A DNA stretch of 64,000 nt from Patescibacteria group bacterium. Its GTDB lineage: Bacteria; Patescibacteriota; Patescibacteriia; JBDRGY01. Shown here piece by piece: positions 1-46,953 of the stretch (position 1 is the first letter of the stretch; each line of letters starts with the position of its first letter). The DNA lies in NCBI GenBank assembly GCA_043817315.1, contig JBDRGY010000014.1:8690-72689 (forward strand), given 5' to 3'. The position numbers were made by a program, and so were the translations under genes. Below the pieces are notes generated by a model, which had not been told where the DNA came from, searched no databases, and worked only from the letters and a program-made list of their open reading frames with translations.

Positions 1-417
1 TCCCACGATCCAAAATATATCCCCCAGCTGCTTTTAGCAGCCAAGCAATATGATGTAGTTTTGGGATCCAGATACATCCACGGCGGCGGCGTCAGAAATT
101 GGGGTTTATCCCGTCGGCTGATTTCCCAGTTCGGTAATCTGTACGCCAGAGCAATTCTATTGTCACCAGTCAAAGATTTAACAGGGGGTTTTAAATGTTT
201 TAATAAAAAGGTCTTGGAATCTTTAGATTTAGACAATGTAGAATCTTTAGGCTACAACTTTCAGATTGAACTGACTTACAAAACATTAAAAAAAGGTTTT
301 ACCATCAAAGAAATACCTATTATTTTTACGGAAAGAAAAGGCGGTAAGTCCAAGTTTAACATGGGTATTGTTTTAGAAAGTTTTATTAAAGTAATTCAAT
401 TAAGGTTTAAAAAATAG
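1..417 (+). CDS. Glycosyltransferase family 2 (dolichyl-phosphate mannose synthase-like), 5'-truncated at the window edge
   Basis: Frame 1 is open from nt 1 (SHDPKYIPQLLLAAKQYDVVLGSRYIHGGGVRNWGLSRRL...) and continues into the ORF ending at 417. The C-terminal region (GGFKCFNKKVLESLDLD...GYNFQIELTYK) resembles the GT2 DPM1-like family. Confidence 0.55.
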   Translation, partial: SHDPKYIPQLLLAAKQYDVVLGSRYIHGGGVRNWGLSRRLISQFGNLYARAILLSPVKDLTGGFKCFNKKVLESLDLDNVESLGYNFQIELTYKTLKKGFTIKEIPIIFTERKGGKSKFNMGIVLESFIKVIQLRFKK

Positions 418-14768: not shown

Positions 14769-14797
14769 GACGTTGACGAATTTGGAGGAAATTAGTA
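14769..14797 (+). promoter_or_regulatory. Sigma70-type promoter (TTGACG-17-TATACT)
   Basis: TTGACG, a 17-nt spacer, then TATACT, upstream of rpsU. The SD GGGGGTG precedes a TTG start. Confidence 0.35.
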
Positions 14798-14850
14798 TAC
14801 TATAAGAGATAATTCATAAATAAATCTGTAAGTTAGGGGGTGAATATAAC

Positions 14851-15099
14851 TTGGTCGAAGTTAAGAGGAAAGACGGGGAGACCCCGGAGAGCTTGCTGCG
14901 TCGTTTTAGCAAAAAAGTGCAGCAAAGCGGTGTTTTGATACGCGCCAAGAAGAATCGTTTCTACGAACGTCCCAAAAATAGAAGAGCCATTAAGGAAGAC
15001 GCTATCCGCCGCAAGGCTATCCGTGATAAAAAAGACTATTTACGTAAGATTGGCAAGCTAGAGGAGTTTGAAAAAAGCCTGCGCAAGAGGAGAAGCTAA
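14851..15099 (+). CDS. rpsU: 30S ribosomal protein S21 (TTG start)
   Basis: VEVKRKDGETPESLLRRFSKKVQQSGVL...RFYERP matches the S21 family. Confidence 0.85.
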   Translation: MVEVKRKDGETPESLLRRFSKKVQQSGVLIRAKKNRFYERPKNRRAIKEDAIRRKAIRDKKDYLRKIGKLEEFEKSLRKRRS

Positions 15100-15103
15100 A
15101 AAC

Positions 15104-15556
15104 ATGAAAACATCAGAACAAATCGAACAAGATTTGAAAAAAGCTCAAAAAGCCAAAGATGAAGTCAGCCTGACAACCTTGCGTATGCTGAAATCGGCCC
15201 TCCACAACCAGGAGATTAGCCTCAAGCAGAAGGAATTAAAAGACGGAGAGGTGCTTAAGGTAGTGGCTACCGAAGTGAAGAAGCACAAAGACTCTATTGA
15301 GGCCTATCGCCAGGGGGAGCGAGGTGATCTGGCCAAAAAGGAAGAAGTAGAATTAGCCATTTTGGAAAAGTACCTTCCAGAGCAACTGGGTGATGAGGAG
15401 ATCAGGCGGGTGGTGGCTGAAATTTTGGATAAGAATCCAGAACTAAAAGATCCCAAAGCTTTCGGCAAGGTCATGAGTCAAGTGATGGCTCAATTAAAGG
15501 GTCAGGCCGATGGCCAAATAGTTAATCAAATCGTTAAAGAGCTTATCAATTCTTAG
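15104..15556 (+). CDS. yqeY: GatB/YqeY-domain protein
   Basis: MKTSEQIEQDLKKAQKAKDEVSLTTLRMLKSAL..., in the conserved rpsU-yqeY arrangement. The in-frame ATG at 15104 is preferred over the track start at 15068, which overlaps rpsU. Confidence 0.75.
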   Translation: MKTSEQIEQDLKKAQKAKDEVSLTTLRMLKSALHNQEISLKQKELKDGEVLKVVATEVKKHKDSIEAYRQGERGDLAKKEEVELAILEKYLPEQLGDEEIRRVVAEILDKNPELKDPKAFGKVMSQVMAQLKGQADGQIVNQIVKELINS

Positions 15557-15557
15557 T

Positions 15558-18500
15558 ATGACAGGGAGGAATAAAATATTTCAGGGAATTTTGGCTGGGT
15601 TGTTTTTGTCTTCCTTGATTTTAGCTGGCAGCTACTTTGTTTTGCCGGAAACTTCTTTAGCCGGTTCCATAGATATGACAGTCGGGGGCAGTTTAGGATA
15701 CGGCCCCTCTGATTTATTACAGACAGTAGTTTTGATCGTGCGCTGGGCCTTGGGCTTATTGGCTTTAGTGGCGGTCATTTTTATTATATATGGTGGTTAT
15801 CTCTGGCTGTCTTCCCGAGGCAACGAAGAGCAGGTGATGAAGGCCAAGCGGGTGTTACGGGATGCCGTAATCGGTATAGTTATTGTGTTACTAGCCTGGG
15901 CCATTGTTACTTATATTATCGGGGTAGTGGGTAACGCTACCAACGGTGAGGGCGGTTCCTCGGGCTGTGGTCTGCCTGATCAGTGTGTTCATTGTGATAC
16001 TTGGTGTAATGCAGACGGATCCACTTCCTATGATCCAGATAATTGCCATTACTTATGTAATTTACCGTCCAGCGGTTTTAAGGTGCGCTGGACTCAACCC
16101 CGGAATGATGATGAAAACGTAACCATTTGTACTGTGATCCAGGCAGGATTCAACGAGACGGTCAATTCCTCTGCTGCCAGCGTAAACACCGGCACTTTTA
16201 GTATCTACCCCACGGGGTCACCGGCAGATATTATTGATGGCACCTTTACCATAGTAGACAAGGTAATAGATTTCATGCCCACTGACTTTTTGGCCATTAA
16301 TACAGCCTACACTTTTAAAATAGAAGGAGTTCTAAATTTGGACGGTGAAGAGGTGGATCCCAAGACAGTTTATTTTACAACAGGCGAGGAAGTAGATGAG
16401 ATACCTCCCATAGTAAATTTGACTGACCCTATTCACGACCAAGGCGAAGTTTGTACCAATACCAATATAGCAGCTGTCTTTAACGAGCCGATTAGAGTGA
16501 TCACTGTTCATGATGGAGCCGAGGATCCAGAGCCCAGTGTCCGCTTCTTCAAGAATTATGACACCGCAGCAGAACTGGAATTGCCCTATCGCGACAACAT
16601 TCATTTTCCGGATGCCTCCAGCTTTATTGCCAAGCCGTTGGATTTACCCCTAGACTCATTTACCGATTACAGTGCCTATCTGGTAGGCGGCGAAATAAGC
16701 AATGCCATTACGGATGTTTGCGGCAATCAGCTGGATGGAGGTGGCGGTCCTCATTTTGGCGGGGTTCCCAACGGAACAGTGGATCCTCCTGATACGGATC
16801 GCTATGTCTGGGATTTTGAAACCGGTGATAATCCGGAGTGTACGCCGGAGATTACGGGAATTAGTCCCACTGAAGGATATTATACGGAAACTAACGTTAC
16901 TATTGACGGTTATTATTTAGGCATCACTGGCGATGTAGTCTTTAAAAACCGGGTTTATGATAAACAAAACTGTTTTGATGGAGAACACTATCCAACTGAA
17001 GATTGTGTCACTCAGTGGTTTTCCACTCAAATTAAGATAGATACTCCGGTTGGCTCCGAAGACAACGGCAATATTAAAGTAGATAATGGTTTTGAAACAG
17101 CTACTTCAGAACAAACCTACCAAGTGCTCAGTCCCTTTATTAATTGGATCAGCCCAAAACGAGGAGGAGTGGGACAATACGTCACTATCAAGGGGGAGAA
17201 TTTCGGGGATATCAAGGGTAATGTCTGGTTTAGAAGGCCCTCTGACAGAGCCGAAGTGTTGGGTATTTTCCCACCAGAAGCCCAATGCGGTGTTACCTGG
17301 TGGAACGATAAGATAATTATTACTGTACCCCCCGGTTTCAATGTGGATGATGATTTGGTTATTCAGGTGGAAACAGCTCCCGTTGATCCTAAATGGAGCA
17401 ATCAAAAAGATTTTAAATTTACTGATGATCCTCCGGGACCCGGTTTATGTTTAGTGGAACCAGACTGCGGCTCGGCCGGTGAAGAAGTAAGTCTCTATGG
17501 AGAGAAATTCGGTGATTATGAAGATGGAGTAACCGTAGTTAATTACGATGAATATCAAGCAGCAGGCTATCCGGGTGCCGGCTGGAGCGATCAACACATC
17601 AGAGCTCAATCACAAGCTAGTTTAGCCAACGATGGCTATACCTTGCGAGTCTTTAACGCCGCCGGAAACAGCAATCCCATGCCTTATGATATTCCTTGTG
17701 GCGGCGCTCCCTATATAATCAATGACACTTCTTGCGATCCGGATTTAGATCTCTGGCCCTCACCTAATCCCAGGCCCAATTCTACCGATGTCTGCAAAAA
17801 CGCCGTAGTCAACGCCCGTTTTGGTCCCGAGAATCAATGTATCGGCGGAGCTGATGAGGGTGAAACTTGTACTGTCGATGCTGATTGTGACAGCAACCAA
17901 TGCGGTATGGAGATGAATGGAGGTACTCTTGCCGGCAACGTCATTCTAGAAGTGTGTAATGCGGGTGGCAGCTTTGATGCCACTGCCTGTGCTGATTTAG
18001 GCGGCACTCTTACTTTTTACGCCCCCAATCAATTTACCCTAGACCCAGCCGCCGCTTTTGTGGCGGACACTTGGTATCAAGCAACAGTCAATAAAGAAGT
18101 AGAATCCTCAACAGGAGCCAAGATGAACAGTGACTACAGCTGGCACTTCAAGATAAAAGAAGACGGTAGTGACTGCCCGGTAGCCTTTGTCAATTTATAT
18201 GATGACGGCCCTGATCCGGTTGGAGAAATAAATTATATTATTGCAGCCGAAGGAGATAACTTCGAGGATTATCATGCCGCTCCTTTTGCCGAAGATTGTA
18301 CTCCGCTGGCAGCTGGTGGCTACACCTATTTATGGTCTTCTTTCAACACTGGTGTGGCCCAGGTGGCGGCTACCACTGTTCCGGCCAACAAAGCTACGGC
18401 CGTGGCCAACGGCTATACCTATGTCAAAGTAGAAACCGAAGGTAAATCAGACCGGGAAAGGTTAACTGTCAATTACTGCGATGCCTCTACAGATTGTACG

Positions 18501-21500
18501 GATTACGATGGTGATGGCTTCGGCGATGATTGTCCTGATAGTGTTTGTGATTTAGAAACCAATAAATGTACCCCGGACGTTCTCGGCTTAAGTCCGGGAG
18601 ATGGTGCCCCCGGTACTTGTGTCACCATTCCCGGCTGTTATTTCGGGGAAAGCACCGGCACGGTTAAATATACCGATGACGTTACAGCAACTTCCATCAG
18701 ATGCCAGGACGATAATTGGCAGGATCACCAGATAGTTTCCGAAGTGCCAGAAGGAGCAAGTAATGGCTTAGTCACTATCAGGAAGCGAGATGGCCTAGAA
18801 GCTGATTCAGCACCTCAAGAGTTTACGGTTAACGCTACGGTCCGGCCCTGTCTCTGCCGCATTGCTCCAAGCAATGGTGAAGAACATGATAAACCAGAGT
18901 TTTACGGGTACGGATTCACCTCAGCAGCCGGAGATCAACTGGCTTATTACACCTCAGCAGCAGGTGGTTTTATAGAAGCTGCTACTTACGGTTCCTGGAC
19001 CGATACCAGAGCCAGCAACGTAGAAGTACCAGTAGGCGTAGCTGAAGGTGATAACCCAGCCAAGGTAACCATAGACGGCCTTGATAGTAATGAACTAGAT
19101 TTCGGCTTTGATCCTGGTTGGGGTCCTCCCTGCTCTTCAGATCCGGACCCGGCAATCTGTACTCCAGATGATGCTATGTGTCCAGTGGATTCTGAATGTC
19201 GTGATACCTATTGCACCTGTCGCTCCCTGCCCAGTTTGGCTTGCGATTCCCAGATAGCAGTAGCCGGTTGTCAGGAAGATGATACTTTGTGCCCGGTTGA
19301 CCATTATTGTGATGCTGCTGATTGTCTCTGCAAGGAAGGATCCGGTCCAGAAGGTGAAGAAGGTGATCCTTGCGATAGCGATGACAGTACGCCAGAATGT
19401 GATCCTGAGGATGCCTTGTGCAACCATGTTGATTTAGTGTGTAACCCTGGTAATTGCGAATGCCGCTGGAAACCGTTTGAGATGCTTCCTTTTTTGATGG
19501 ACGAGGGGTGTACTTCTTCTTTGGTGGTGTTTGAATTCAACCAAAGGGTGGATGCTGCTACAGCCACAGTTAAGGACGCAGATGATGAGTATATTAATAT
19601 TAGGATAGCCGATTTACTTACAGCAGAATATGTTCCGGGCCAACTATCAGTTTATGGCAAGAAGGTAATCTTTAACCCGGACGGATTATTTAAAGAAGAT
19701 GGTCGCTATCAATACGCGATTCAAGCCGGGCCAGGCGGAGTTCTCAGTGAACATGGTGGTGAATTGGAAGCTACCTATCAAGGTGCTTTTGACATTGAGG
19801 GTCCTTGTACTTTGAGTAAGATTAAATTTTTCATGAGTGATGAGCAGGAAGATAATTATGGACCGCCTGATCTTTTTACCTGTAATTATGATTCAGGCTG
19901 TGGGGATGATTTTGATGACGCGGCCACCGGTAACCAGCACGCCCTTTTGGGACTGGGATATGACAATGTAGGCAGAGTGGTCAGCGCGGACTTTACCAGC
20001 TTTGATCGCTATGCTGGAAGTGACGATGTGGTGGTCTGGAACGATCCTTCACCCGTAGCTCCGCCCCCCTCAACTAACCCCTTTTGGTACGGCTATATTG
20101 AGCCCAAATCCGGTACCGACATTGGCACTGCTCAGATAGATGTTGAAGCCACTGATGAGCCCTGGACACCGGTCGGAGAAGAGCCCAATGTGGTCAATAC
20201 CGCTTTTTCAGTGAAAGTCTTTATTTGTGAACATCCTTGGCCCACGGACACCTTCCCCTTTAGAGACCCGGCTCATAATTGGGAAACTTTCTATTGCATG
20301 GACGGTGGCTTGCCGGATTTTACAAACAGAACATCAGTGGTGCCACCTGATCCTGATATCTTGGGTGAATATTTATTAACCAAAGCGGAAGGGGCGGACG
20401 TTATTGGTATCCGGATGATGAAGAATTTTGAACACTATTCACCTTCCGAGTGGTACGCTAAGAAATTCGGGCCCAACACGGGACATCCTATGTCTCTTTC
20501 CATTGACGGTTACCAAGCAGTCAAAGATGGGCGCACAATTTATATCAACGGAGCTAATCTGGGAGGCACCCTTTATTCCAATATGTATATTATCTCCTAC
20601 GACGAAGAAGAGTCTAGTTGTAATATTGCCAAGAACCCCAGCTTTGAAAGCGGCCTGGACGATTGGTCCTCTCAGGGGGGCACGGTCACTATTGACAGCG
20701 GAGTGGGAGCTCAGATTGATGATTCTAGCTCCGTCAAACTGTATTCACCCAACGGTATCCAATCTTTTGTAATGCAGGAATTTGATAACCTAGAGATCGG
20801 AAAATCCTACACTATCTCTGGTTGGGTCAAGGCCGAGTTTGCCGCCAGCAACAAGGGTAGGGTAGGAATTATTACCCAATGTTATGGACTAAGGTGCGAC
20901 GATGGATCTAATGTTGGCAAAAAATGCAAGATTAATGATGACTGTCCCGACAGTAGCTGCGGCATGGGCATAGTCAATGACACTCAGTGCGGATTCCATA
21001 AGTCCTCTTATCCGCTTTGGGGTGATGCCGATGATATTATTCTGGTTAATGATGAAGAAAATGGGGGACATGGTTCCGTACTGCCTTGGACCAAGGTAAA
21101 TGTAACGGTCAAATACGATTCACCCGGGTATACTTTAAGAGTGCTCTGCGTTAATTCAACCACAGAGGCAGACACCGGTATAGCAGGAGGATCTGGTGAG
21201 GGCAATTCCTGGTGCGATTTTATCCAGCTAGAACCCAGAGGTTCTTGTAATCAGTCTTTTGTGCGACAAGTTTACGATGAATTGATAGACAACTGGGCCT
21301 TCAATACTAATGAGGGTAGTTTTGCCGAGGGAGCCCTGGGAGTGGCTCGGGTAAAAAGAGATATTGGTAGATTAGGCGATCTGATGTATGTCAGGAATCG
21401 TTTGATTGACTATGCTGTTATCAATAACAGCTACCCTGACCTGGAAGCCGGTTCCTATATGCGTAATATTTCTTCGTCTCTGTGGCCTTCTTGGCAAGCC

Positions 21501-21830
21501 CGACTGGGTAATGCTCTGGGCAAAGGTTTGCCGTCTGACCCTTTACAAACCACAGCCATTTGTGCCCCTCCATATGATACTGACACCTGCTGGGATGAAG
21601 AGGCCAAGATATTTACCTGTCCGGGAAATGTGTATTCCTATGGCTATCGGGCTTTTGATATCGAAGCCTCAGGCGCTCTCAGGAGCAAATTGTATGGTCA
21701 CCTGGAATATACTGCCGCTGGATGGCAAGATCCAGTCAGTAATTATTCCGGGGATCTTTGTCAGGATCGACAGTGCAGTGATGTTAGTTGTTTCAATAAA
21801 GAGATTAATGTTGGCGACATTACTTTATAA
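15558..21830 (+). CDS. Giant (2090 aa) surface protein: N-terminal VirB2/TrbC-like pilin domain, IPT/TIG domains, Cys-rich repeats and a C-terminal CBM4/9-like carbohydrate-binding domain
   Basis: N-terminus has two long hydrophobic helices flanking a short polar loop (VVLIVRWALGLLALVAVIFIIYGGYLWLSSRGNEEQVMKAKRVLRDAVIGIVIVLLAWAIV), like type IV secretion pilins. At least five IPT/TIG-like units (for example CTPEITGISPTEGYYTETNVTIDGYYLG and PFINWISPKRGGVGQYVTIKGENFGD). A Cys-rich segment (CTPDDAMCPVDSECRDTYCTC...). The C-terminal NPSFESGLDDWSSQGG...YTISGWVKAE is CBM4/9-like. Confidence 0.6.
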   Translation: MTGRNKIFQGILAGLFLSSLILAGSYFVLPETSLAGSIDMTVGGSLGYGPSDLLQTVVLIVRWALGLLALVAVIFIIYGGYLWLSSRGNEEQVMKAKRVLRDAVIGIVIVLLAWAIVTYIIGVVGNATNGEGGSSGCGLPDQCVHCDTWCNADGSTSYDPDNCHYLCNLPSSGFKVRWTQPRNDDENVTICTVIQAGFNETVNSSAASVNTGTFSIYPTGSPADIIDGTFTIVDKVIDFMPTDFLAINTAYTFKIEGVLNLDGEEVDPKTVYFTTGEEVDEIPPIVNLTDPIHDQGEVCTNTNIAAVFNEPIRVITVHDGAEDPEPSVRFFKNYDTAAELELPYRDNIHFPDASSFIAKPLDLPLDSFTDYSAYLVGGEISNAITDVCGNQLDGGGGPHFGGVPNGTVDPPDTDRYVWDFETGDNPECTPEITGISPTEGYYTETNVTIDGYYLGITGDVVFKNRVYDKQNCFDGEHYPTEDCVTQWFSTQIKIDTPVGSEDNGNIKVDNGFETATSEQTYQVLSPFINWISPKRGGVGQYVTIKGENFGDIKGNVWFRRPSDRAEVLGIFPPEAQCGVTWWNDKIIITVPPGFNVDDDLVIQVETAPVDPKWSNQKDFKFTDDPPGPGLCLVEPDCGSAGEEVSLYGEKFGDYEDGVTVVNYDEYQAAGYPGAGWSDQHIRAQSQASLANDGYTLRVFNAAGNSNPMPYDIPCGGAPYIINDTSCDPDLDLWPSPNPRPNSTDVCKNAVVNARFGPENQCIGGADEGETCTVDADCDSNQCGMEMNGGTLAGNVILEVCNAGGSFDATACADLGGTLTFYAPNQFTLDPAAAFVADTWYQATVNKEVESSTGAKMNSDYSWHFKIKEDGSDCPVAFVNLYDDGPDPVGEINYIIAAEGDNFEDYHAAPFAEDCTPLAAGGYTYLWSSFNTGVAQVAATTVPANKATAVANGYTYVKVETEGKSDRERLTVNYCDASTDCTDYDGDGFGDDCPDSVCDLETNKCTPDVLGLSPGDGAPGTCVTIPGCYFGESTGTVKYTDDVTATSIRCQDDNWQDHQIVSEVPEGASNGLVTIRKRDGLEADSAPQEFTVNATVRPCLCRIAPSNGEEHDKPEFYGYGFTSAAGDQLAYYTSAAGGFIEAATYGSWTDTRASNVEVPVGVAEGDNPAKVTIDGLDSNELDFGFDPGWGPPCSSDPDPAICTPDDAMCPVDSECRDTYCTCRSLPSLACDSQIAVAGCQEDDTLCPVDHYCDAADCLCKEGSGPEGEEGDPCDSDDSTPECDPEDALCNHVDLVCNPGNCECRWKPFEMLPFLMDEGCTSSLVVFEFNQRVDAATATVKDADDEYINIRIADLLTAEYVPGQLSVYGKKVIFNPDGLFKEDGRYQYAIQAGPGGVLSEHGGELEATYQGAFDIEGPCTLSKIKFFMSDEQEDNYGPPDLFTCNYDSGCGDDFDDAATGNQHALLGLGYDNVGRVVSADFTSFDRYAGSDDVVVWNDPSPVAPPPSTNPFWYGYIEPKSGTDIGTAQIDVEATDEPWTPVGEEPNVVNTAFSVKVFICEHPWPTDTFPFRDPAHNWETFYCMDGGLPDFTNRTSVVPPDPDILGEYLLTKAEGADVIGIRMMKNFEHYSPSEWYAKKFGPNTGHPMSLSIDGYQAVKDGRTIYINGANLGGTLYSNMYIISYDEEESSCNIAKNPSFESGLDDWSSQGGTVTIDSGVGAQIDDSSSVKLYSPNGIQSFVMQEFDNLEIGKSYTISGWVKAEFAASNKGRVGIITQCYGLRCDDGSNVGKKCKINDDCPDSSCGMGIVNDTQCGFHKSSYPLWGDADDIILVNDEENGGHGSVLPWTKVNVTVKYDSPGYTLRVLCVNSTTEADTGIAGGSGEGNSWCDFIQLEPRGSCNQSFVRQVYDELIDNWAFNTNEGSFAEGALGVARVKRDIGRLGDLMYVRNRLIDYAVINNSYPDLEAGSYMRNISSSLWPSWQARLGNALGKGLPSDPLQTTAICAPPYDTDTCWDEEAKIFTCPGNVYSYGYRAFDIEASGALRSKLYGHLEYTAAGWQDPVSNYSGDLCQDRQCSDVSCFNKEINVGDITL

Positions 21831-21849
21831 TTAAGATATTTAGGATAGT

Positions 21850-22629
21850 ATGCCAGAAGAAAATATAAACCACCCCCCAAAGCAAGTAGAAGATATTTTT
21901 GAAGATGTGGATCAAAGTCCAGTTGCGGCTGGACCTCCGCCAGCTCCACCAGTTTCACCAGCAGAACCAGTATCTACTCCACCCGCTCAGCCGATGTCAG
22001 CTCCAGCTGCCCCCAAACAAGATGTTGGTTTTCCCTCTCCTGTGGCGGGCGGAACTCCCAAACCACCCAAAATTCCTATGTCATCCGGGCTCAGATGGAT
22101 AATCATAATTGTGGTGGGTGTAGCCATAATCATTTTGGGCTTAGGTGTTTATTATTATTTTGTGAGACAGACTGAAAATGATAATATTAATAATGTTAAT
22201 GACAACCTTAACTCGACAACGGCCAGTGTCAATACCAACTTGAACACAAACCTAAACACCAATGTCAACGGGAATGTTAACCAGAACACCAATCAGACAG
22301 TTACCAATCTAAATCAAAACACCAACCTTAACATCAACACTAATACCAATGTCAATACTAATACCAACCTTAATGCCAACACCAACCAGGCCCCAGACCA
22401 AGATCAAGACGGATTGACTGATGCTGAAGAAAAGCAGTTGGGAACTGACCCCGAAGTTGTTGATTCAGACGGTGACGGGTTATATGATTATGAGGAAGTG
22501 AAAATTTATACCACGGATCCCTTGGACGCAGACACAGACGGTGATGGTTTCGAAGATGGTCAAGAAGTGCAAAATGGTTACAATCCCAAAGGTGATGGTA
22601 AAATTATAAATACCAACATTAATAGCTAA
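21850..22629 (+). CDS. Membrane-anchored protein with a Pro-rich N-terminus, an N/T-rich linker and thrombospondin type-3-like Asp-rich calcium-binding repeats
   Basis: TM helix IIIIVVGVAIIILGLGVYYYFV, NTNLNTNVN repeats, and DQDQDGLTDAEEKQLGTDPEVVDSDGDGLYDYEE...DADTDGDGFEDGQEVQNGYNPKGDG. Confidence 0.5.
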   Translation: MPEENINHPPKQVEDIFEDVDQSPVAAGPPPAPPVSPAEPVSTPPAQPMSAPAAPKQDVGFPSPVAGGTPKPPKIPMSSGLRWIIIIVVGVAIIILGLGVYYYFVRQTENDNINNVNDNLNSTTASVNTNLNTNLNTNVNGNVNQNTNQTVTNLNQNTNLNINTNTNVNTNTNLNANTNQAPDQDQDGLTDAEEKQLGTDPEVVDSDGDGLYDYEEVKIYTTDPLDADTDGDGFEDGQEVQNGYNPKGDGKIINTNINS

Positions 22630-22646
22630 ATAAAAGGAAAAAGATA

Positions 22647-24302
22647 ATGGCATTTTCTGATGAAAACAAACAAGATAGTCTAGGCTCCACTCCTCTAGGG
22701 CCCGGCCAGAGCGTCCAGCCCGATATTGAGGGAGGAGACTTTGAGCTTCCCACGCCCCCCAGCCAGGAAGATGATAGAGCAGAGGAACCGGTTCAAAGGG
22801 CAGCAGTTGGTACGGTTTCGGAGCCAATAATGCACACTATGCCCAGTAAGTTTTTATCAGGAAAGTCCAGCAAGGGAAGCGAGCAGAAGAAAAAGGGTTC
22901 ACCCAAGAAAATCATTATATGGGGCGCAATTATTTTTGTCGTCCTGGTTGGTCTAGTTTTGGGAGCCATCCTTCTGTTTAATAACGCAGTCAATACAAAT
23001 AACGTTAATAGTAATGTGACAGTTAATGCCAACAGCAATTCGACAGGTCAGTTGGATCGGGCAGCGGTGGTCAAGGAAATTGATGCCGACGATAGCCTGG
23101 CCGGCTATTTGTCGGACAATAACTGCATTTCGGTGAATGAAGATCTGAGCGGTTACATCGCCAAAATGGTAGAAGTGCGCTTGGGAATTATTAACGATTA
23201 TATTGCTTATGATGGTTCTGGTTTGTCAGTCAGCATGCTAAGAAGCTCTTATCCTACTGGCACTTTTATTTCCACATTTAAGTTGTATGCCAAAGGAAAC
23301 GGATACGAAGTTCCCGATATGGAAGATTTTTGGTATGTGGGCATGACCTTTGGTGATACCTGTAATAAACAAGTAGAAGTTTGGGTTGACCTCGACCAAC
23401 CTGACCAGGTCTATTACGGTGATTTGCACGATTCTGAGGATTGGATTATGACCAATGTCGGTACCAACACCAACACCAATCAGAATGTTAACGCGAATAG
23501 CAACATAAACCAAAACACTAATACCAATCAGAATAGTAATACCAACACCAACGTCAATCTAAATACCCCGGTTTCCGACAGCGAGGACACTGATAACGAC
23601 AGCCTGACCGATGTAGAGGAAATTGCCTACGGTACTCAGGACAATTTGCCCGATACTGATGGTGATGGTTACACCGATGGCACCGAGGTGCAAAATGGTT
23701 ATAACCCCAAAGGCAGCGGTTCTTTGTCCAGCTCTGATTTGGTTGAGACTTATACCAATGATGTCCAAAACTACACTATTTTGTATCCTCGCGCCCTCCT
23801 AGATCAACCTACCAGCGTAGAAACAAAAAAAGAAGTTGTTTTCTTGGCGCCTTCCGGCGAGTTTATTGAAGTAACGGTCCAAGATAACCCCTCTCAGCTG
23901 GCTGCCTCGGCCTGGTATATGGCTCGTAATCCAGGAGTCGATATGACTACTCTAGATAGTATTACCGTAAACGGGCTGAAGGGAATTCTCAGTCCTGATA
24001 AATTAGCTGCCTACTTGGCCCAAGATGAAAAAATCTTTGTCATATCATATGATCGAGGCACCAAGACAGAAATCGGCTATCGCACCACTTTCAAAATGAT
24101 GTATAAAAGTTTTGTGGCAGAATCAGTACCTATTAACAGCAATACTAATCAAAATCTGAATACCAATATTAATACCAATTCCAACAGCAATGTAAATACC
24201 AATACTAACAGTAATTCCAACACCAACACCAATACCAACACCAATACCAATACCAACACCAACTCAAACATTAATCAAAACAGCAACACTAATTCCTTGT
24301 AG
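22647..24302 (+). CDS. Membrane-anchored paralog-like protein with N/T-rich linkers, a globular domain and TSP3-like calcium-binding repeats
   Basis: TM helix IIIWGAIIFVVLVGLVLGAILLF, repeats DSEDTDNDSLTDVEEIAYGTQDNLPDTDGDGYTDGTEVQNGYNPKGSG, and a long C-terminal NTNTNTN tract. Confidence 0.5.
   Translation: MAFSDENKQDSLGSTPLGPGQSVQPDIEGGDFELPTPPSQEDDRAEEPVQRAAVGTVSEPIMHTMPSKFLSGKSSKGSEQKKKGSPKKIIIWGAIIFVVLVGLVLGAILLFNNAVNTNNVNSNVTVNANSNSTGQLDRAAVVKEIDADDSLAGYLSDNNCISVNEDLSGYIAKMVEVRLGIINDYIAYDGSGLSVSMLRSSYPTGTFISTFKLYAKGNGYEVPDMEDFWYVGMTFGDTCNKQVEVWVDLDQPDQVYYGDLHDSEDWIMTNVGTNTNTNQNVNANSNINQNTNTNQNSNTNTNVNLNTPVSDSEDTDNDSLTDVEEIAYGTQDNLPDTDGDGYTDGTEVQNGYNPKGSGSLSSSDLVETYTNDVQNYTILYPRALLDQPTSVETKKEVVFLAPSGEFIEVTVQDNPSQLAASAWYMARNPGVDMTTLDSITVNGLKGILSPDKLAAYLAQDEKIFVISYDRGTKTEIGYRTTFKMMYKSFVAESVPINSNTNQNLNTNINTNSNSNVNTNTNSNSNTNTNTNTNTNTNTNSNINQNSNTNSL
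24130..24298 (+). repeat. Hexanucleotide tandem repeat (AATACC/AACACC and variants) encoding poly(Asn-Thr/Asn-Ser)
   Basis: aataccaacaccaataccaacaccaataccaataccaacacc... Similar tracts occur at 22190-22390, 23461-23570, 5470-5525 and, on the minus strand, around 53650-53700. Confidence 0.6.
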
Positions 24303-24325: not shown

Positions 24326-24727
24326 ATGCCAGTTGCCATTAATAACACCATAAAGCAGGAAATTGATAAGCGCTTTTTCCAGAAGACGGCTCGGTCAGTT
24401 TTTCGGGTCTGCAAAAAGTCCCTATCAAAGTACCAACTTTCAATTGCCCTGGTCGACAATCGAACGATCAGGCGGCTGAATAAACAATATCGAAATAAAA
24501 ACAAAATAACTACTGTCTTATCCTTTTCTTTCTCGGAAGAATCAGGTGAAATTGTTTTAGCTGTTCCTGAAATCAGAAAAAAAAGCCAGGAGGAGGGGAT
24601 AAGCTTTAAAAACAACCTGCAGAGAATACTGGTGCATGGTCTTTTGCATCTTTGTGGTTATCATCATGGCAATCAAAAAGAAGCCAGGAGGGCGGAGGCG
24701 CTAGAATATAAAATATTAGCCAGATAA
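24326..24727 (+). CDS. ybeY: rRNA maturation endoribonuclease YbeY
   Basis: HGLLHLCGYHH zinc-binding motif. Confidence 0.8.
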   Translation: MPVAINNTIKQEIDKRFFQKTARSVFRVCKKSLSKYQLSIALVDNRTIRRLNKQYRNKNKITTVLSFSFSEESGEIVLAVPEIRKKSQEEGISFKNNLQRILVHGLLHLCGYHHGNQKEARRAEALEYKILAR

Positions 24728-25093
24728 ATGCCTGTTTTTAACATCAAAACTCTACTTAAAAGCTTTACCTATGCTTGGCGCGGCTTTCGTTACGCCACTC
24801 GCCGGGAGCAAAATTTTAGGATTCATTTGGTTTCAACGGTGGTGGTGATACTATTAATGATATTTTTCAGCGTAACTCTATACGAAGCCATTATTTTGAC
24901 TATAGCCATTATGTTCGTTTTGATCCTAGAGCTGGTAAACATAATATTTGAGAGACTGGTTGATATGTTGCAGCCTCGCATTCACCATTATGCCGAAATT
25001 ATCAAGGATTTGATGGCCACTGCTGTTCTGGTAGCCTCTGCCGGGGCCCTGATTGTAGGCATATTAGTGTTCTATCCCTACCTTTTTTCTTAA
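24728..25093 (+). CDS. dgkA: Diacylglycerol/undecaprenol kinase, DgkA family
   Basis: 121 aa with three TM helices and the conserved E..N..FE..VD core (ELVNIIFERLVDML). Confidence 0.75.
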   Translation: MPVFNIKTLLKSFTYAWRGFRYATRREQNFRIHLVSTVVVILLMIFFSVTLYEAIILTIAIMFVLILELVNIIFERLVDMLQPRIHHYAEIIKDLMATAVLVASAGALIVGILVFYPYLFS

Positions 25094-25155
25094 GTTGCAC
25101 ATAATCAGTAAATACTTTATAATAAAAATAAATATTTCAGAAGGAAGAAACAAGA

Positions 25156-26403
25156 ATGGCAAGAGAATCAATTATCACTGGAGTTGATATCGGCTCGAAC
25201 GCAGTCCGGGTAATGGTGGGACAGAGAAACGCAGTAGAAGAGCCACTGCAGATTATCGGAGTAGGCGAGGTCCCCTCAGAAGGGATCAGTAAAGGTGTGG
25301 TCACAAGTATTGAAGACGCCGTTTCTTCTATTTCTAAAGGCCTGGAGAAGGCGGAGAGGATGACGGGTATTCCCATCGAACATGCCTATATTGGCATTGG
25401 TGGAACTCATGTTATTTCTCAGGACAGCCACGGTGTGATAGCCGTTTCCAAGGCTGACGGAGAAATTAAGGAAGAAGATGTAGAAAGAGTGATTGAAGCG
25501 GCTCAAGCAGTTGCCACTCCGCCCAACTACGAAATCCTTCATGTTATCCCCAGAAGTTTTACCGTGGATGACCAAAAAGGAATAAAAGATCCGATCGGTA
25601 TGTCGGGAATCAGGCTGGAAGTTGACGCTCAAATTATTCAGGGTTTAACCGCTCAAATAAAAAATTTAACCAAATCAGTTTACCGCACTTCAGTTGATAT
25701 TGATGATTTAGTCTTGGGCATATTGGCCTCAGCCGAAGCCTGTATTAGCAAGAGACAAAAAGAACTGGGAGTGGTCTTGGTCAATATCGGCAGTGCTACT
25801 AGTTCCTTGATGGTCTTTGAAGAGGGTGACGTATTGCATACAGCCATTCTGCCAATTGGGGCCGGCCATATTACCAATGACATTGCTATCGGGTTACGTA
25901 CTTCCATCGAGATTGCCGAAAAAATAAAGTTGGATTACGGCTCAGCCCTGCCTAAAGATATCAGTAAACATCAGGAAATTGATCTTTCCAACATCGAAGA
26001 ATCAGAAGAGGGATTGGTTTCCCAAAAACAGGTGGCCGAGATTATTGAAGCCAGGCTAGAGGAGATATATAAAATGGTAGATAAAGAGCTAAAAGAAATT
26101 GATCGCTCAGGCTTATTGCCGGCGGGAGTAGTATTATCGGGCGGAGGATCCAAACTGCCCGGAGCTGTCGAAGTAGCCAAACGAATATTTAAACTGCCCA
26201 GCACTATTGGTTATCCCTCAGAGATAATTACAGCCATTGATAAAGTTAAAGATCCCTCCTTTACTGTAGCTGTCGGTTTAGTCTTGTGGGGATCTCAGAT
26301 GGAAGATAAGGTGGGTGGTCGCAAGATTTTCAGTACTGATTTCTCTTCTGTCTCCAAGGCAACAGATAAGATGAAGAGCTGGTTTAAGTCGCTAATGCCA
26401 TAG
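25156..26403 (+). CDS. ftsA: Cell division protein FtsA
   Basis: Actin-like ATPase (ITGVDIGSNAVRV, GGGSKLPG), immediately upstream of ftsZ. Confidence 0.9.
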   Translation: MARESIITGVDIGSNAVRVMVGQRNAVEEPLQIIGVGEVPSEGISKGVVTSIEDAVSSISKGLEKAERMTGIPIEHAYIGIGGTHVISQDSHGVIAVSKADGEIKEEDVERVIEAAQAVATPPNYEILHVIPRSFTVDDQKGIKDPIGMSGIRLEVDAQIIQGLTAQIKNLTKSVYRTSVDIDDLVLGILASAEACISKRQKELGVVLVNIGSATSSLMVFEEGDVLHTAILPIGAGHITNDIAIGLRTSIEIAEKIKLDYGSALPKDISKHQEIDLSNIEESEEGLVSQKQVAEIIEARLEEIYKMVDKELKEIDRSGLLPAGVVLSGGGSKLPGAVEVAKRIFKLPSTIGYPSEIITAIDKVKDPSFTVAVGLVLWGSQMEDKVGGRKIFSTDFSSVSKATDKMKSWFKSLMP

Positions 26404-26405
26404 TC

Positions 26406-27590
26406 ATGGCCCCAAATAATATTAAGAAAGATAAATCTATGGAAATTAAACCGGAAATTGAAACTTTCGCCAAGATCCAAGTAATTGGCGTAGGAGGAAG
26501 TGGCAATGCCGCAATTAATAGAATGATTTCTTCGAAAATCAGAGGTGTTGATTTTGTGGCCATTAATACCGATGCTCAAGCCCTTCATCATTCCAGGGCC
26601 GGAACCAAATTACACATAGGAAAAATGACTACCAAAGGCTTGGGAGCTGGCATGGACCCAGAATTGGGACTAAAGGCAGCCGAAGAGAATCAGGACGAAT
26701 TACATGAGATGATTAAGGGATCCGATATGGTATTTATCACTTGTGGCCTGGGAGGAGGAACTGGTACCGGAGCCTCACCAGTCATCGCTGATATCGCCAA
26801 AGACGTTGGAGCCTTAACCGTGGGAGTGGTCACTAAACCATTTGGTTTTGAAGGAGAACAGAGGAGACTTCTAGCCGACAGGGGATTGTCTGATTTAGCT
26901 GAAAAGGTTGATTCAATCATCACAATTCCCAATGACCGCATTTTACAAATTATTGATAAGAAAACTTCTTTGTTAGATTCTTTTGCAATTGTTGATGATG
27001 TTCTCCGTCAAGGCGTCCAGGGTATTTCCGATTTGATTACGGTGCCAGGATTGATTAACGTTGACTTTGCTGATGTCAAAGCCATTATGGAGAACACGGG
27101 TTCAGCCCTGATGGGAATCGGTAATGCCACTGGAGAGAATCGGGCCATAGAAGCGGCCAAGTCCGCCATCGACAGCCCCTTGCTGGAATTGTCTATTGAC
27201 GGAGCCAAAGGCATCCTGTTTACCATATCGGGTGGTCCGGGATTGGGTATGTATGAAGTTAACGAGGCGGCTAAAGTGATTACTTCCAACGCCGACGCCA
27301 ATGCTAAGGTTATATTCGGTGCAGTCATCGATGAAAATATGAAAGATCAGATCTCCATAACCGTTATTGCTACAGGTTTCGGAGAAAAGGGCAGAAAAGC
27401 TGCCAGGAAGGTATCAGCAACTCGGTTAACTCCATTTGAAGAGGAAAAACCTGAAAGAAATGAAAAGAAAAAGCCGGCCTTTGAACCGGTGCCTCCAGTA
27501 TTAGGAGCAACACCAGACCAAGACGACATTAAGAAAAAAGAGGAAGAAGAACTAGAAATTCCGGCCTTTATCCGGAAAAAGATGATGTAG
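26406..27590 (+). CDS. ftsZ: Cell division protein FtsZ
   Basis: GVGGSGNAAINRM and the tubulin signature GGGTGTGASPVIA. Confidence 0.95.
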   Translation: MAPNNIKKDKSMEIKPEIETFAKIQVIGVGGSGNAAINRMISSKIRGVDFVAINTDAQALHHSRAGTKLHIGKMTTKGLGAGMDPELGLKAAEENQDELHEMIKGSDMVFITCGLGGGTGTGASPVIADIAKDVGALTVGVVTKPFGFEGEQRRLLADRGLSDLAEKVDSIITIPNDRILQIIDKKTSLLDSFAIVDDVLRQGVQGISDLITVPGLINVDFADVKAIMENTGSALMGIGNATGENRAIEAAKSAIDSPLLELSIDGAKGILFTISGGPGLGMYEVNEAAKVITSNADANAKVIFGAVIDENMKDQISITVIATGFGEKGRKAARKVSATRLTPFEEEKPERNEKKKPAFEPVPPVLGATPDQDDIKKKEEEELEIPAFIRKKMM

Positions 27591-38401: not shown

Positions 38402-38435
38402 AAGGTCTCTTATATAAGAGACCTTTTTATTTTTG
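38402..38435 (+). terminator. Rho-independent terminator (perfect 24-nt palindrome plus T-tract)
   Basis: AAGGTCTCTTATATAAGAGACCTT followed by TTTATTTTTG. Confidence 0.55.
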
Positions 38436-38531
38436 TTGACAATTCTAATCAATATTGTAAGCTATGGTCAGACGGGACAAGATCATTGGCCCGTTTTTCA
38501 ATTGCCAGCTAAATATTTTAAAGCCAGCTTA

Positions 38532-46908: not shown

Positions 46909-46953
46909 TATCTAATCGGGGGCGCCCTCGGACGCCCCCACTAACACTAAGAG

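Follow-up and report, generated by a model that had tools for sequence, protein, structure and literature searches.

The three genes described here, in a 64-kb stretch of DNA (the window) from an uncultured, ultra-small patescibacterium, on balance probably encode an adhesive fibre complex of the cell surface that is constitutive, anchored in the membrane and dependent on calcium. The product of gene A would be exported by Sec, with its signal peptide probably cleaved at about SLA/G, and held in the membrane by a VirB2-type hairpin, so oriented that both the mature N-terminus and the C-terminus lie outside and the basic loop SRGNEEQVMKAKRVLRD lies inside. Its ectodomain of about 1960 residues would form a stalk, built from Big_5, TIG and Cys-knot-like modules, that holds out a distal head of PsbP/Mog1-like and pilin-like domains, in which, in the source organism, a putative sugar-binding sandwich of CBM4/9 type is inserted. 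The products of genes B and C would display calcium-binding TSP3 repeats on long N/T-rich tethers, C adding a copy of the PsbP-like domain, and may form a calcium-dependent association with the giant. The complex would bind a glycan-bearing surface, most likely that of a host or partner cell. In CPR bacteria a part in host attachment has already been proposed for giant membrane proteins (PMC8080830), and a Saccharibacterium requires glycan-binding envelope proteins for its epibiotic growth (PMC10633639). The self-anchored attachment organelle of the earlier note accords with the architecture, the hairpin family and the synteny; adhesion, glycan binding and a role as anchor rather than pilus subunit are what we infer. 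A literature search found no published description of the gene trio.

The three closely packed plus-strand ORFs lie where they had been placed before (Table 1), and the deposited counterpart of the giant is titled 'MAG: Ig-like domain-containing protein [Patescibacteria group bacterium]'. The gaps in the series yqeY-A-B-C-ybeY are 1 nt (the gene A start codon stands 1 nt past the yqeY stop), 19, 17 and 23 nt. A promoter-like site is present at 14773-14801, upstream of rpsU, and a sequence scan gave no terminator-like site in any of these gaps, in agreement with the small, terminator-free gap described earlier after gene A. Probably, rpsU and yqeY are co-transcribed with gene A. GC across the locus is 44-48%, near that of the flanks.

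Table 1. Features of the locus in window coordinates; aa, residues of the encoded protein.
Feature	Coordinates	Strand	Evidence
rpsU (S21) and yqeY, immediately 5' of gene A	14851..15556	+	ORFs, synteny
Gene A, 2090-aa giant surface protein	15558..21830	+	ORF; 100% identical to NCBI MFH1598401.1
A: signal peptide, aa 1-35	15558..15662	+	Hydrophobic aa 6-30; AF2 helix aa 4-28; alignment with relatives
A: VirB2-like pilin hairpin (PF18895), aa 52-128: helix, SRGN turn, helix	15711..15941	+	Pfam, AF2, identity
A: first Cys-rich linker, aa 130-172	15945..16073	+	Read from translation
A: two Big_5 Ig-like domains, aa 174-275 and ~280-400	16077..16757	+	Pfam Big_5
A: TIG/IPT domains 1 and 2, aa 430-522 and 526-621	16845..17420	+	Pfam TIG 28.3 and 30.6 bits
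A: Big_5 domain 3, aa 787-865	17916..18152	+	Pfam Big_5 29.3 bits
A: TIG domain 3, aa 1009-1074	18582..18779	+	Pfam TIG 21.2 bits
A: Cys-rich array, ~aa 1195-1320, three C-x-D-rich repeats	19140..19517	+	Read from translation
A: head part i, aa 1557-1688: CEHPWP motif and most of PsbP/Mog1/LpqN-like domain	20226..20621	+	
A: CBM4/9-like beta-sandwich, aa 1689-1896	20622..21245	+	Pfam, Foldseek
A: head part ii, aa 1897-2085: PsbP-like terminal helix, then pilin/pseudopilin-like domain	21246..21812	+	
Gene B, 259-aa type II membrane protein	21850..22629	+	ORF; TM segment; TSP3_bac
Gene C, 551-aa type II membrane protein	22647..24302	+	ORF; TM segment; TSP3_bac
C: C-terminal domain, paralogue of the giant's PsbP-like head domain	23739..24122	+	hhalign
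ybeY, dgkA, ftsA, ftsZ, conserved 3' neighbours	24326..27590	+	ORFs, synteny

Hydrophobic segments of the gene A protein are found at aa 6-30, 52-86 and 98-128 and nowhere else in its 2090 residues. The signal peptide aligns with the A-x-A-Q signal-peptide ends of relatives. The hairpin that follows is modelled by AF2 as helices at aa 50-85 and 90-129 (pLDDT 81-94), and aa 54-120 match T4SS_pilin PF18895 with 41.9 bits in the whole protein and 46.9 bits in the N-terminus alone (curated cut-off 26.6 bits). It is 40-53% identical to stand-alone pilins of 113-178 aa encoded in tandem pilin arrays, the pilins P0012-P0018 reaching 53%, and the consensus iiYGG..W.T..GNE...KAK....IGL.I is common to giants and free pilins. 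The proposal of two VirB2/TrbC-like hydrophobic helices with a short polar loop is therefore upheld in sequence and in predicted structure. A generic signal anchor was considered for the N-terminus and ruled out by the PF18895 score above cut-off, the pilin identity and the common consensus. PF18895 pilins and arrays are described from the Southlakia epibionticum T4SS cluster and Nanosynbacter TM7x (PMC12102498, PMC10633639). Array pilins of this family share with the giant a signal peptide, a helix, a short basic turn and a second helix, with the pattern IIYGG..W.T..GN.E...KAK, but they are 110-180 aa long and stand in tandem, often near virB4, whereas the giant has about 1960 extra residues and is a single gene in a housekeeping operon away from T4SS genes. 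A 2025 survey scored PF18895 matches by HMM coverage, protein length being unreported in the passages covered (PMC12102498), and giants may have been counted there as ordinary VirB2. Strong conservation of the hairpin and its loop suggests that pilin-specific contacts have been kept, the partner being another pilin or an assembly machine, and the hairpin is probably more than a passive anchor.

Pfam matches in gene A run in the order T4SS_pilin, Big_5, TIG, CBM_4_9, with three matched stretches each for Big_5 and TIG. For Big_5 the whole protein scores 72.2 bits, and the first two domains, searched as fragments, 35.2 and 24.3 bits, the second match spanning only aa 280-319. At least five IPT/TIG units had been proposed, of which three pass the Pfam cut-off (20.9 bits) and the other two are read from a sequence pattern. 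The Cys-rich array at ~aa 1195-1320 is without a Pfam match; the protein contains 76 Cys in total.

The conserved head is a PsbP/Mog1-like domain followed by a domain with weak type-IV-pilin likeness, and the CBM is an accessory insertion. The second part of the head carries the motif RD..R..DL...Y...YP...WPSWQ..LG..LP.DP...CW...LEY. Unlike type IV pilins and the T2SS major pseudopilins (GspG, EpsG), its pilin-like domain has neither a prepilin signal nor a hydrophobic N-terminal helix, is C-terminal in the protein, and in the giant itself matches no Pfam pilin model. The CBM, with a Cys-rich loop of its own, is inserted ahead of the last helix of the PsbP-like domain. Its Pfam CBM_4_9 match (aa 1689-1760, 31-35 bits, cut-off 25.9) spans only model positions 2-74 of 136, and the best Foldseek matches, from a model with pLDDT <50, are to CBM16, 35 and 22 (E 4e-3, probability 1.0). 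The module is thus of CBM4/9 type, as the earlier note had it, but internal instead of C-terminal. Insertion at the aa-1689 site is found only in the window protein and in P0019; a CBM-like homologue occurs in at least 13 representatives, at three insertion points within the head or as a separate domain upstream of it. Among giants the accessory domains of the head are swapped, for example CBM and NHL. The two-part head is present in at least 769 protein clusters, and many family members lack the CBM, so glycan binding cannot be a universal function. The pilin-CBM combination singled out in the earlier note is not the hallmark of the family, the CBM being accessory; what is conserved is the hairpin, the Ig-like stalk and the two-domain head, which the note had overlooked.

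The two downstream genes encode single-pass membrane proteins with TSP3-like calcium repeats, as had been recognised from the translations. Gene B combines a cytoplasmic EDIF motif and a TM helix (~aa 82-106) with an N/T-rich linker and, at aa 183-247, three TSP3 calcium repeats (TSP3_bac 68 bits, cut-off 25); its orthologues are 34-43% identical (alignment A5). In gene C a cytoplasmic HTMP..F motif and a TM helix (~aa 89-113) are followed by a variable domain (~aa 135-290), TSP3 repeats (aa 314-354; 29.7 bits against the same cut-off) and a conserved C-terminal domain (aa 365-492), with orthologues 28-41% identical (A4). Comparison of A4 with A3 by hhalign ties this domain to the head of the giant (probability 97%, E 1e-10, 93 columns, gene C aa 395-492). 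Direct fusions of the head to TSP_3 repeats are seen in 5 of 10 other proteins sampled. With bacterial TSP3-repeat surface proteins (PF18884; the Myxococcus CglD and MtsD families, NCBIfam) B and C have in common their Asp-rich calcium-binding repeats, which exceed the Pfam cut-off, but B and C are far shorter, single-pass type II proteins with N/T-rich tethers. Gene B matches the MtsD and CglD models weakly, and membership of these families was rejected for B and C at ~30 bits against equivalog cut-offs of 400-800.

The N-terminal hairpin is present in 76 of 81 representative head-bearing giants and is their best-conserved region, with a median core identity among giants of 47%; median identity to the window protein is 34.5% over the head and 26% over the stalk. 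Giants range widely in length, from 1348 to 4605 aa. The conserved gene order is LepB-HisRS-(HIT)-S21-YqeY-giant-TSP3 protein(s)-YbeY-DagK-FtsA-FtsZ. All five close relatives keep the trio and its neighbours, and so does each locus of the genome scan whose flank is long enough, except for two copies of a variant locus (L021 and L024); apart from these, the upstream rpsU-yqeY order holds wherever the flank reaches that far. The same chromosomal position among housekeeping genes is found in relatives only 26-33% identical, which argues for vertical inheritance. The giants are thus no one-off fusion but a large family that is inherited vertically and fixed in a housekeeping operon. A generic anchor, a domain other than a CBM and a lack of co-conservation had been named beforehand as speaking against the reading; a pilin-family hairpin, a CBM-type sandwich and a trio co-conserved in every relative with enough flank were found instead.

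Conjugative pili grow from the base; if pili of the VirB2 type considered here do the same, a giant that initiated such a pilus would end at its tip as a built-in tip adhesin, in the role of VirB5 in Gram-negative systems. Gene A could accordingly encode a specialised VirB2-type pilus subunit whose hairpin packs with free PF18895 pilins from elsewhere in the genome, a reading that we consider unlikely. In its favour, solved conjugative pili expose both pilin termini at the outer surface, F pilin displays short fusions made to its C-terminus, and the predicted topology places the C-terminal extension of the giant outside. The hairpin, the best-conserved part, retains the full free-pilin consensus, turn and KAK loop included, and its nearest stand-alone relatives stand in tandem arrays, of a kind reported essential in Southlakia (PMC12102498, PMC10633639). 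Shorter in-array fusions also occur, such as a 376-aa pilin with PG_binding_1, and a PrgB-like T4SS adhesin went undetected in Patescibacteria (PMC12102498). However, the window contains neither VirB4 nor VirB6 nor a further pilin gene, and in all relatives the gene is in the housekeeping operon and not in a T4SS cluster. Some assemblies of Kerfeldbacteria and Uhrbacteria, the groups of GTDB class ABY1 into which the named relatives fall, are listed without VirB4 in Table S1 of PMC12102498, a listing confounded by incomplete MAGs. Pilus formation by PF18895 proteins is itself putative, and an extension of 1960 residues on every subunit is unfit for a homopolymer, so only rare incorporation would be possible. 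It is very improbable that the locus belongs to a conjugation or T4SS apparatus or a mobile element, with the giant as a mating adhesin. The PF18895 match and a sub-threshold one to NF045849, a family of pilin-like conjugal transfer proteins of Mycoplasma elements (30.3 bits, cut-off 40), point that way, but relaxase, VirB4, VirD4 and integrase are missing among the large ORFs of the 64-kb window, GC is close to that of the flanks, and the housekeeping position is identical in distant relatives. A Pfam search of every window ORF of at least 446 aa found no VirB4 or VirD4 domain, in line with the earlier observation that no secretion ATPase is nearby.

S-layer systems commonly feature calcium-binding repeats and long N/T-rich tethers that are probably glycosylated. 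The trio might form an S-layer-like or cell-wall-spanning scaffold of the envelope, with the giant as canopy or spacer and B and C as calcium-binding pillars, perhaps comparable to membrane-anchored archaeal S-layer stalk proteins; we think this quite improbable. A core, syntenic gene, probably co-transcribed with rpsU and yqeY and lying directly 5' of ybeY, dgkA, ftsA and ftsZ in each sufficiently flanked related locus (bar the variant L021), would suit it, as would the short conserved cytoplasmic motifs of B and C and the occurrence of the head in so many clusters. A core gene present as a single copy among ribosomal and cell-division genes is as much to be expected of a structural envelope component as of an adhesin. 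Synteny in small CPR genomes, however, may be historical and not functional, and domain scans of the trio detected no lattice-forming or SLH domain. The wide variation in length and the swapping of head accessory domains are more typical under host-interaction pressure, and a sugar-binding module at the membrane-distal end fits outward binding.

As a membrane-anchored adhesive fibre, the giant may be likened to two kinds of known adhesins. On pili, tip adhesion is served by VirB5 in T4SS and by minor pilins with large C-terminal domains in type IV systems, and a functional analogy is possible in that an adhesive module is placed by a pilin-type membrane segment; the giant differs in lacking VirB5 homology and in having a VirB2-type instead of a type IV pilin segment, and its incorporation into a pilus is putative. 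Gram-positive fibrillar adhesins such as SasG and the Mobiluncus giant adhesin (PMC4458895, PMC10619420) similarly have a long stalk of Ig-like repeats and a ligand-binding module far from the anchor; they are linked to the wall by a C-terminal LPXTG, in contrast to the N-terminal membrane pilin hairpin, the Cys-rich stalk and the PsbP-like and pilin-like tip with swappable inserts of the giant. The conservation of the hairpin exceeds the need of a plain anchor and points beyond anchoring.

Three consecutive open reading frames, genes A, B and C (together the trio), lie exactly where the earlier note had placed them on the forward strand (Table). Gene A, the giant, starts one base after the stop of a yqeY-like gene, and each of genes A, B and C is followed by a short gap, of 19, 17 and 23 nt, respectively. 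A consensus scan detected no terminator-like hairpins in these gaps, in line with the terminator-free arrangement described before, and found a promoter-like site upstream of rpsU; the trio and the housekeeping genes probably form one operon. The remaining genes of the window are ordinary small-genome housekeeping genes, nearly all on the same strand: LepB, HisRS, HIT, S21, YqeY, YbeY, DagK, FtsA, FtsZ, ribonucleotide reductase, RF, GlmS, ComEC, ArgRS, and another class I tRNA synthetase. No T4SS ATPase was found by a Pfam scan among the window ORFs of at least 446 aa, which agrees with the previous statement that no secretion ATPase, VirB4 or VirD4 is nearby, and the window contains no second pilin ORF besides gene A. 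The gene A protein is identical to NCBI MFH1598401.1, encoded on a 106,924-bp contig and titled ‘MAG: Ig-like domain-containing protein [Patescibacteria group bacterium]’.

Positions of the trio, of the features of gene A (in residues), and of neighboring and related loci
Feature	Position	Strand	Length	Remark
Gene A ORF	15558-21830	+	2090 aa	
Gene B ORF	21850-22629	+	259 aa	
Gene C ORF	22647-24302	+	551 aa	
EDIF motif	21850-21900			gene B
(V/I)HTMP..F motif	22647-22850			gene C
Promoter-like site	14773-14801			
LysM protein	4134-5879	+	581 aa	signal peptide, WxLIP_PGBD, LysM, membrane segment, N/T-rich linker
ORF after LysM protein	5883-11021	+	1712 aa	zero Pfam matches
ComEC	38433-39962	+		Competence + DUF4131
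GC-rich stretch	45568-48120	+		
NHL protein	48229-51591	+	1120 aa	large surface-type protein; NHL, FG-GAP, TIG repeats
Hydrophobic segments, gene A	aa 6-30, 52-86, 98-128			
Signal-peptide helix (AF2)	aa 4-28			
Hairpin helices (AF2)	aa 50-85, 90-129			
PF18895 match	aa 54-120			
Big_5	aa 174-275, ~280-319, 787-865			Pfam on fragments
Big_5, extra copy	near aa 1325-1406			sub-threshold
TIG	aa 430-522, 526-621, 1009-1074			Pfam on fragments
CBM_4_9	aa 1689-1760			
Stretch splitting the head	aa 1689-1896			
Pilin-like head domain	aa 1917-2085			
Pilin array, L006	1-3059			
Pilin array, L007	6592-8465			
Pilin array, L008	1021-5342			
Variant locus L021	927-14417			
Variant locus L024	902-13774			

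Gene A has three hydrophobic segments only, all near the N-terminus, and the last two correspond to a two-helix segment (the hairpin) matched by PF18895 (T4SS_pilin). The match scores 41.9 bits for the whole protein against a cut-off of 26.6, and 46.9 bits for the first 140 aa, and covers profile positions 5–71 of 71. The pilin-type N-terminus proposed from the sequence thus passes the curated cut-off of PF18895, while the older TrbC/VirB2 model, PF04956, gives 18.6 bits and stays under its cut-off of 27.9; a sub-threshold NCBIfam match is to a pilin-like conjugal transfer family from Mycoplasma elements. In an AF2 model built from a 26-sequence alignment, a signal-peptide helix is followed by the two hairpin helices, which are connected by the four-residue turn SRGN and have pLDDT of 81–94. 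The layout is that of a signal peptide and two hydrophobic helices with a short basic turn, and the hydrophobic segments match those of stand-alone PF18895 proteins (free pilins) column by column in the alignment. The signal peptide ends with SLA|G, aligned with A-x-A-Q ends in the relatives. Cleaved gene A protein would accordingly be oriented N-out, basic loop in and C-out, and with this topology the remaining ~1960 residues would be extracellular. Judged by sequence, gene A is a member of PF18895. Free relatives (P0012–P0018) are 113–178 aa long and typical pilin precursors are small stand-alone subunits of ~110–180 aa, to be compared with the 2090 aa of gene A; its neighbors are housekeeping genes in all relatives, not T4SS genes or pilin arrays. 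Gene A is therefore not filed as a functional pilin.

With the N-terminal 140 aa of gene A as a query, only free-standing PF18895 proteins were retrieved (33–53% identity), and three of them belong to arrays in which three to about nine pilin genes stand in tandem. No VirB4 was called within ~9–20 kb around these arrays (L006, L007, and L008), which contain the free pilins closest to the gene A hairpin. An SBP_bac_1 gene adjoins the array in two of the three loci, and mid-size fusions, a 376-aa pilin with PG_binding_1 and a 268-aa pilin, are found inside the arrays. Tandem PF18895 arrays have been described in Patescibacteria and are reportedly essential in Southlakia (PMC12102498, PMC10633639, PMC12857230). 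In this literature the pilins are predicted, and an observed pilus is not reported for any PF18895 protein. PDB sequence searches with profiles of the pilin domain, of gene C, and of the conserved C-proximal module of gene A described below gave nothing significant.

Behind the hairpin, Big_5 and TIG domains are arranged with Cys-rich stretches between them, and the total number of Cys in gene A is 76. While at least five TIG units had been counted before, three pass Pfam and the other two are recognized by pattern. Fibrillar adhesins in general are already known, and gene A has their tandem Ig-like stalk and, within its last 400 residues, a predicted ligand-binding domain (CBM_4_9) far from the anchor. 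The C-terminus (...EINVGDITL) contains no hydrophobic segment, and searches of Pfam and NCBIfam detected no LPXTG sortase signal, T1SS retention or autotransporter barrel in gene A. The anchor of gene A is the N-terminal hairpin. Gene A would work as fibrillar adhesins do, but both its anchor and its tip are of a new kind.

The tip, hereafter the head, is a conserved C-proximal module that was missed in the earlier note and became visible by reading the sequences of homologous proteins P0002–P0011. Its consensus runs CENPWP ... GIRV.N...SP..WY ... DGY.A...GRT.YV ... N.YL.SY.E, continues with IY.Q...W.FN.N ... RD..R..DL ... Y...YP ... S.WPSWQ..LG..LG..LP.DP, and ends with CW ... F.CP ... LEY ... 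C.CFNY. Two halves of the head are contiguous in the relatives and ~210 residues apart in gene A, and the stretch separating them is the CBM_4_9 match according to both the domain tables and the alignment. The C-terminal CBM4/9 domain claimed earlier is indeed above the Pfam cut-off (PF02018, 31.4–35.2 bits against 25.9, with only profile positions 2–74 of 136 matched), but it is an internal insert with the conserved head around it. An exhaustive search with aa 1681–2090 against 1.84 billion representative proteins gave 769 clusters (E ≤ 1e-3), of which 438 also pass E ≤ 1e-10; in nearly all of them the match is confined to the non-CBM part. This search was the useful one; the head alignment against a word-indexed database found two proteins only.

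An AF2 model of aa 1540–2090 from 27 sequences has pLDDT of 77–95 over most of the conserved module and, owing to coverage by just two sequences, below 50 over the greater part of the CBM insert. The modeled head consists of a beta-rich domain with two helices, followed by a 32-residue helix and then four strands. The first domain is structurally similar to solved members of the PsbP/Mog1/LpqN-like fold. For the insert, the Foldseek matches in PDB are all to CBM16, CBM35 or CBM22 modules, at E 4e-3 with a probability of 1.0 and a target TM of about 0.4, and lie on the part of the model with pLDDT below 50. The second domain of the head is internal and has neither a hydrophobic segment nor a class III (prepilin) signal. 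None of the Pfam pilin families matches aa 1451–2090 of gene A even at E ≤ 10; for this reason, the model-based term “pilin-like” is kept as a weak structural statement. A hint of relationship to pilins, indirect and the only one at the level of sequence, comes from the neighboring LysM protein encoded in the same window, whose C-terminus is a pilin-head-like domain, also devoid of a prepilin signal: aa 446–501 match the gene A head HMM (E 2.4e-5), and the overlapping aa 478–552 match Pfam T2SSG with 20.4 bits against a cut-off of 21. An orthologue of this LysM protein is present at the matching relative position in the related locus L002.

The CBM is not confined to one site. An iterative search seeded with the insert found homologues in at least 13 of the collected representatives, whereas single-sequence phmmer retrieved P0019 and P0027 only. 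The CBM is located at the same site as in gene A in P0019, inside the PsbP-like domain in P0063, P0082, and P0039, after the pilin-like domain's long helix in P0137 and P0027, and as a separate domain 200–300 residues upstream of the head in P0022, P0025, P0037, P0056, P0064, and P0069. CBM_4_9 is undetected by Pfam in P0063 and P0137. In P0002, NHL repeats, which also occur in the 1120-aa protein of the window, fill an insertion site of the head, and P0161 has a similar-looking insert as judged by eye. With these varied CBM and NHL insertions, the head behaves as a scaffold repeatedly acquiring binding modules, and such repeated gain argues for an outward-facing recognition role of the head.

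Genes B and C, described earlier as two membrane-anchored proteins with calcium repeats, are indeed type II membrane proteins with one hydrophobic segment each, preceded by basic residues, and each carries an N/T-rich low-complexity tether and TSP3_bac repeats (PF18884, cut-off 25; 68 bits in three stretches in gene B and 29.7 bits in gene C). Their orthologues in five relatives are 28–43% identical (alignments A4 for gene C and A5 for gene B), and the Asp ladder is invariant. Two short cytoplasmic motifs at the N-termini are invariant, too (EDIF for gene B, (V/I)HTMP..F for gene C), which suggests that a conserved partner exists in the cytoplasm. Gene C has in addition a conserved C-terminal domain of ~130 residues, and some orthologues a variable extra domain. 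Profile–profile comparison relates this C-terminal domain to the first domain of the head (probability 97%, E 1e-10, 93 columns), and since the alignment runs across the point where the CBM is inserted, the CBM is located immediately ahead of the final helix in the PsbP-like domain. Genes B and C are just upstream of ftsA and ftsZ.

The giant belongs to a family. Homologues P0002–P0011 are 1348–3260 aa long and 26–33% identical to gene A, and most of them share the N-terminal PF18895 and the Big_5/TIG stalk (no PF18895 match is recorded for P0007 and P0008, and no TIG match for P0009). Among the best 150 representatives of the head search, the head lies more than 900 residues from the start in 81, and 76 of these have a pilin-domain HMM match at the N-terminus; of the other five, at least two are fragments without the initial Met and two have a different two-helix hydrophobic N-terminus. 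These giants are 1348–4605 aa long (median 2068). Median identity is 47% among the giants for the hairpin core (72 columns), and 34.5% and 26% to gene A for the head and the stalk, respectively. The giants and the free pilins have a common consensus, which extends to the turn and the KAK loop, and the nearest hairpin is another giant's in 76 of 77 giants. This pattern indicates a single, old fusion which has remained under pilin-type constraint; the fusion is a family and not an accident. In 61 of the 150 representatives, proteins of up to ~2000 aa, the head is close to the N-terminus, directly after the signal peptide in the examples examined by sequence. Thrombospondin type 3 repeats immediately follow such an N-terminal head in five of 10 sampled proteins, so that head and TSP3, encoded by adjacent genes here, are fused in some proteins.

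The gene order is conserved as well. In five close relatives, followed as far as the contigs extend, Peptidase_S26, HisRS, (HIT), S21, and YqeY precede the giant, and the TSP3 protein, a 384–588-aa protein, YbeY, DagK, FtsA, and FtsZ follow it. A scan of one genome per species with a narrow alignment biased to one motif (A7) gave 18 loci, two of them duplicates of earlier ones, titled Patescibacteria, Uhrbacteria, Kerfeldbacteria, and several “uncultured Gammaproteobacteria.” HMM and phmmer mapping showed that the order is kept in every scan locus with enough flank except for two variants, and at least one TSP3 gene, in most cases two or three, comes directly after the giant in every locus with enough flank. 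Co-conservation of the trio, for which the earlier note had called, is thus observed in the five close relatives and in the scan loci with enough flank, and the trio is vertically inherited. In the variants (L021 and L024), two consecutive large pilin-fused proteins (901 and 1925 aa) are followed by a separate protein of 802–1011 aa that bears the head and then by B- and C-like TSP3 genes, with no YbeY or FtsA/FtsZ downstream; the arrangement resembles a split or a paralogous form of the trio system. L023 has an additional 637-aa pilin fusion. Six loci titled “uncultured Gammaproteobacteria bacterium” (L010, L012, L014, L016, L018, and L024) have the giant and the full Patescibacteria-type synteny, and the labels of these third-party assemblies look wrong. 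Kerfeldbacteria and Uhrbacteria belong to the GTDB class ABY1, and Table S1 of the 2025 survey includes assemblies of both with and without VirB4 and does not list the giant-locus genomes (PMC12102498).

Gene A combines an N-terminal pilin-family hairpin, an extracellular multi-domain stalk, and a two-domain head with a CBM-type insert, and two TSP3 membrane proteins, one with a shared head domain, are co-conserved with it. On balance, the trio probably constitutes a constitutive, membrane-anchored adhesive fiber complex. The three proteins are inferred to contact one another and to be exposed at the surface, and the complex to depend on calcium, bind glycans, and adhere. The hairpin is conserved more than an anchor requires, which leaves room for an alternative in which it would pack against free pilins or interact with a T4SS and might bring the giant to a filament tip; with the size of gene A and its housekeeping neighborhood, this alternative is unlikely. 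A core envelope scaffold or S-layer-like structure, the other serious rival, is somewhat less probable still. A role in conjugation or in a mobile element is very unlikely and was rejected, as gene content, composition, and synteny all speak against it.

The pilus-related alternative has consequences of its own. To our knowledge, other monoderm T4SSs have no pilins, and the VirB2-like pilins of Patescibacteria are an acknowledged oddity. If the hairpin were an assembly module, which is unlikely, with the ~2000-residue adhesin starting or capping a monoderm VirB2-type filament, gene A would be without precedent as a conjugative-type pilin that carries its own giant tip adhesin, the conserved trio beside ftsA/ftsZ would be the core attachment organelle of the lineage (the named relatives are ABY1), and the retention of VirB2-like pilins here would be accounted for.

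A large part of uncultured bacterial diversity belongs to the Patescibacteria, which presumably live attached to other cells. In one lineage, the trio is a defined candidate for the structure behind host recognition or for an envelope structure. Here a pilin module is reused at the membrane-proximal end of giant surface proteins, which form a large, vertically inherited family with fixed partner proteins and a conserved head accepting sugar-binding inserts. Whether the PF18895 hairpin is an anchor or a filament subunit becomes a testable question, and the discrete domains (CBM insert, PsbP-like domain, and TSP3 repeats) are accessible to expression and assay with no need to grow the organism. 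Giant membrane proteins of CPR have already been proposed as attachment factors (PMC8080830), glycan-binding envelope proteins are essential for epibiotic growth (PMC10633639), and VirB2-like pilins are reportedly essential in the one model tested, Southlakia (PMC12102498, PMC10633639). No description of PF18895 fused to a giant ectodomain, of the conserved head or of the trio was found in the literature; a “giant genes” preprint deals with unrelated Omnitrophota proteins. The 2025 survey scored PF18895 matches by HMM coverage, with protein length unreported in its accessible part (PMC12102498), and with such scoring the giants may have been counted as VirB2. Where “VirB2 pilins” of these genomes are counted by HMM, proteins several thousand residues long may be among them.

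Several other genes of the window are worth describing. The ORF directly after the LysM protein has a counterpart of 1496 aa at the equivalent position in L002, also without Pfam matches, and is a second conserved giant in the neighborhood of gene A, its nature unassigned by Pfam. The GC-rich stretch, with local GC of up to 55.8% against ~43% in the flanks, covers two membrane-protein ORFs, one of 446 aa that weakly matches SPFH/Band_7 and one of 388 aa that has no match in Pfam, together with long antisense ORFs. A protein with a metallo-beta-lactamase fold comes after the ComEC competence channel, and this finding agrees with reports of natural competence in Patescibacteria.
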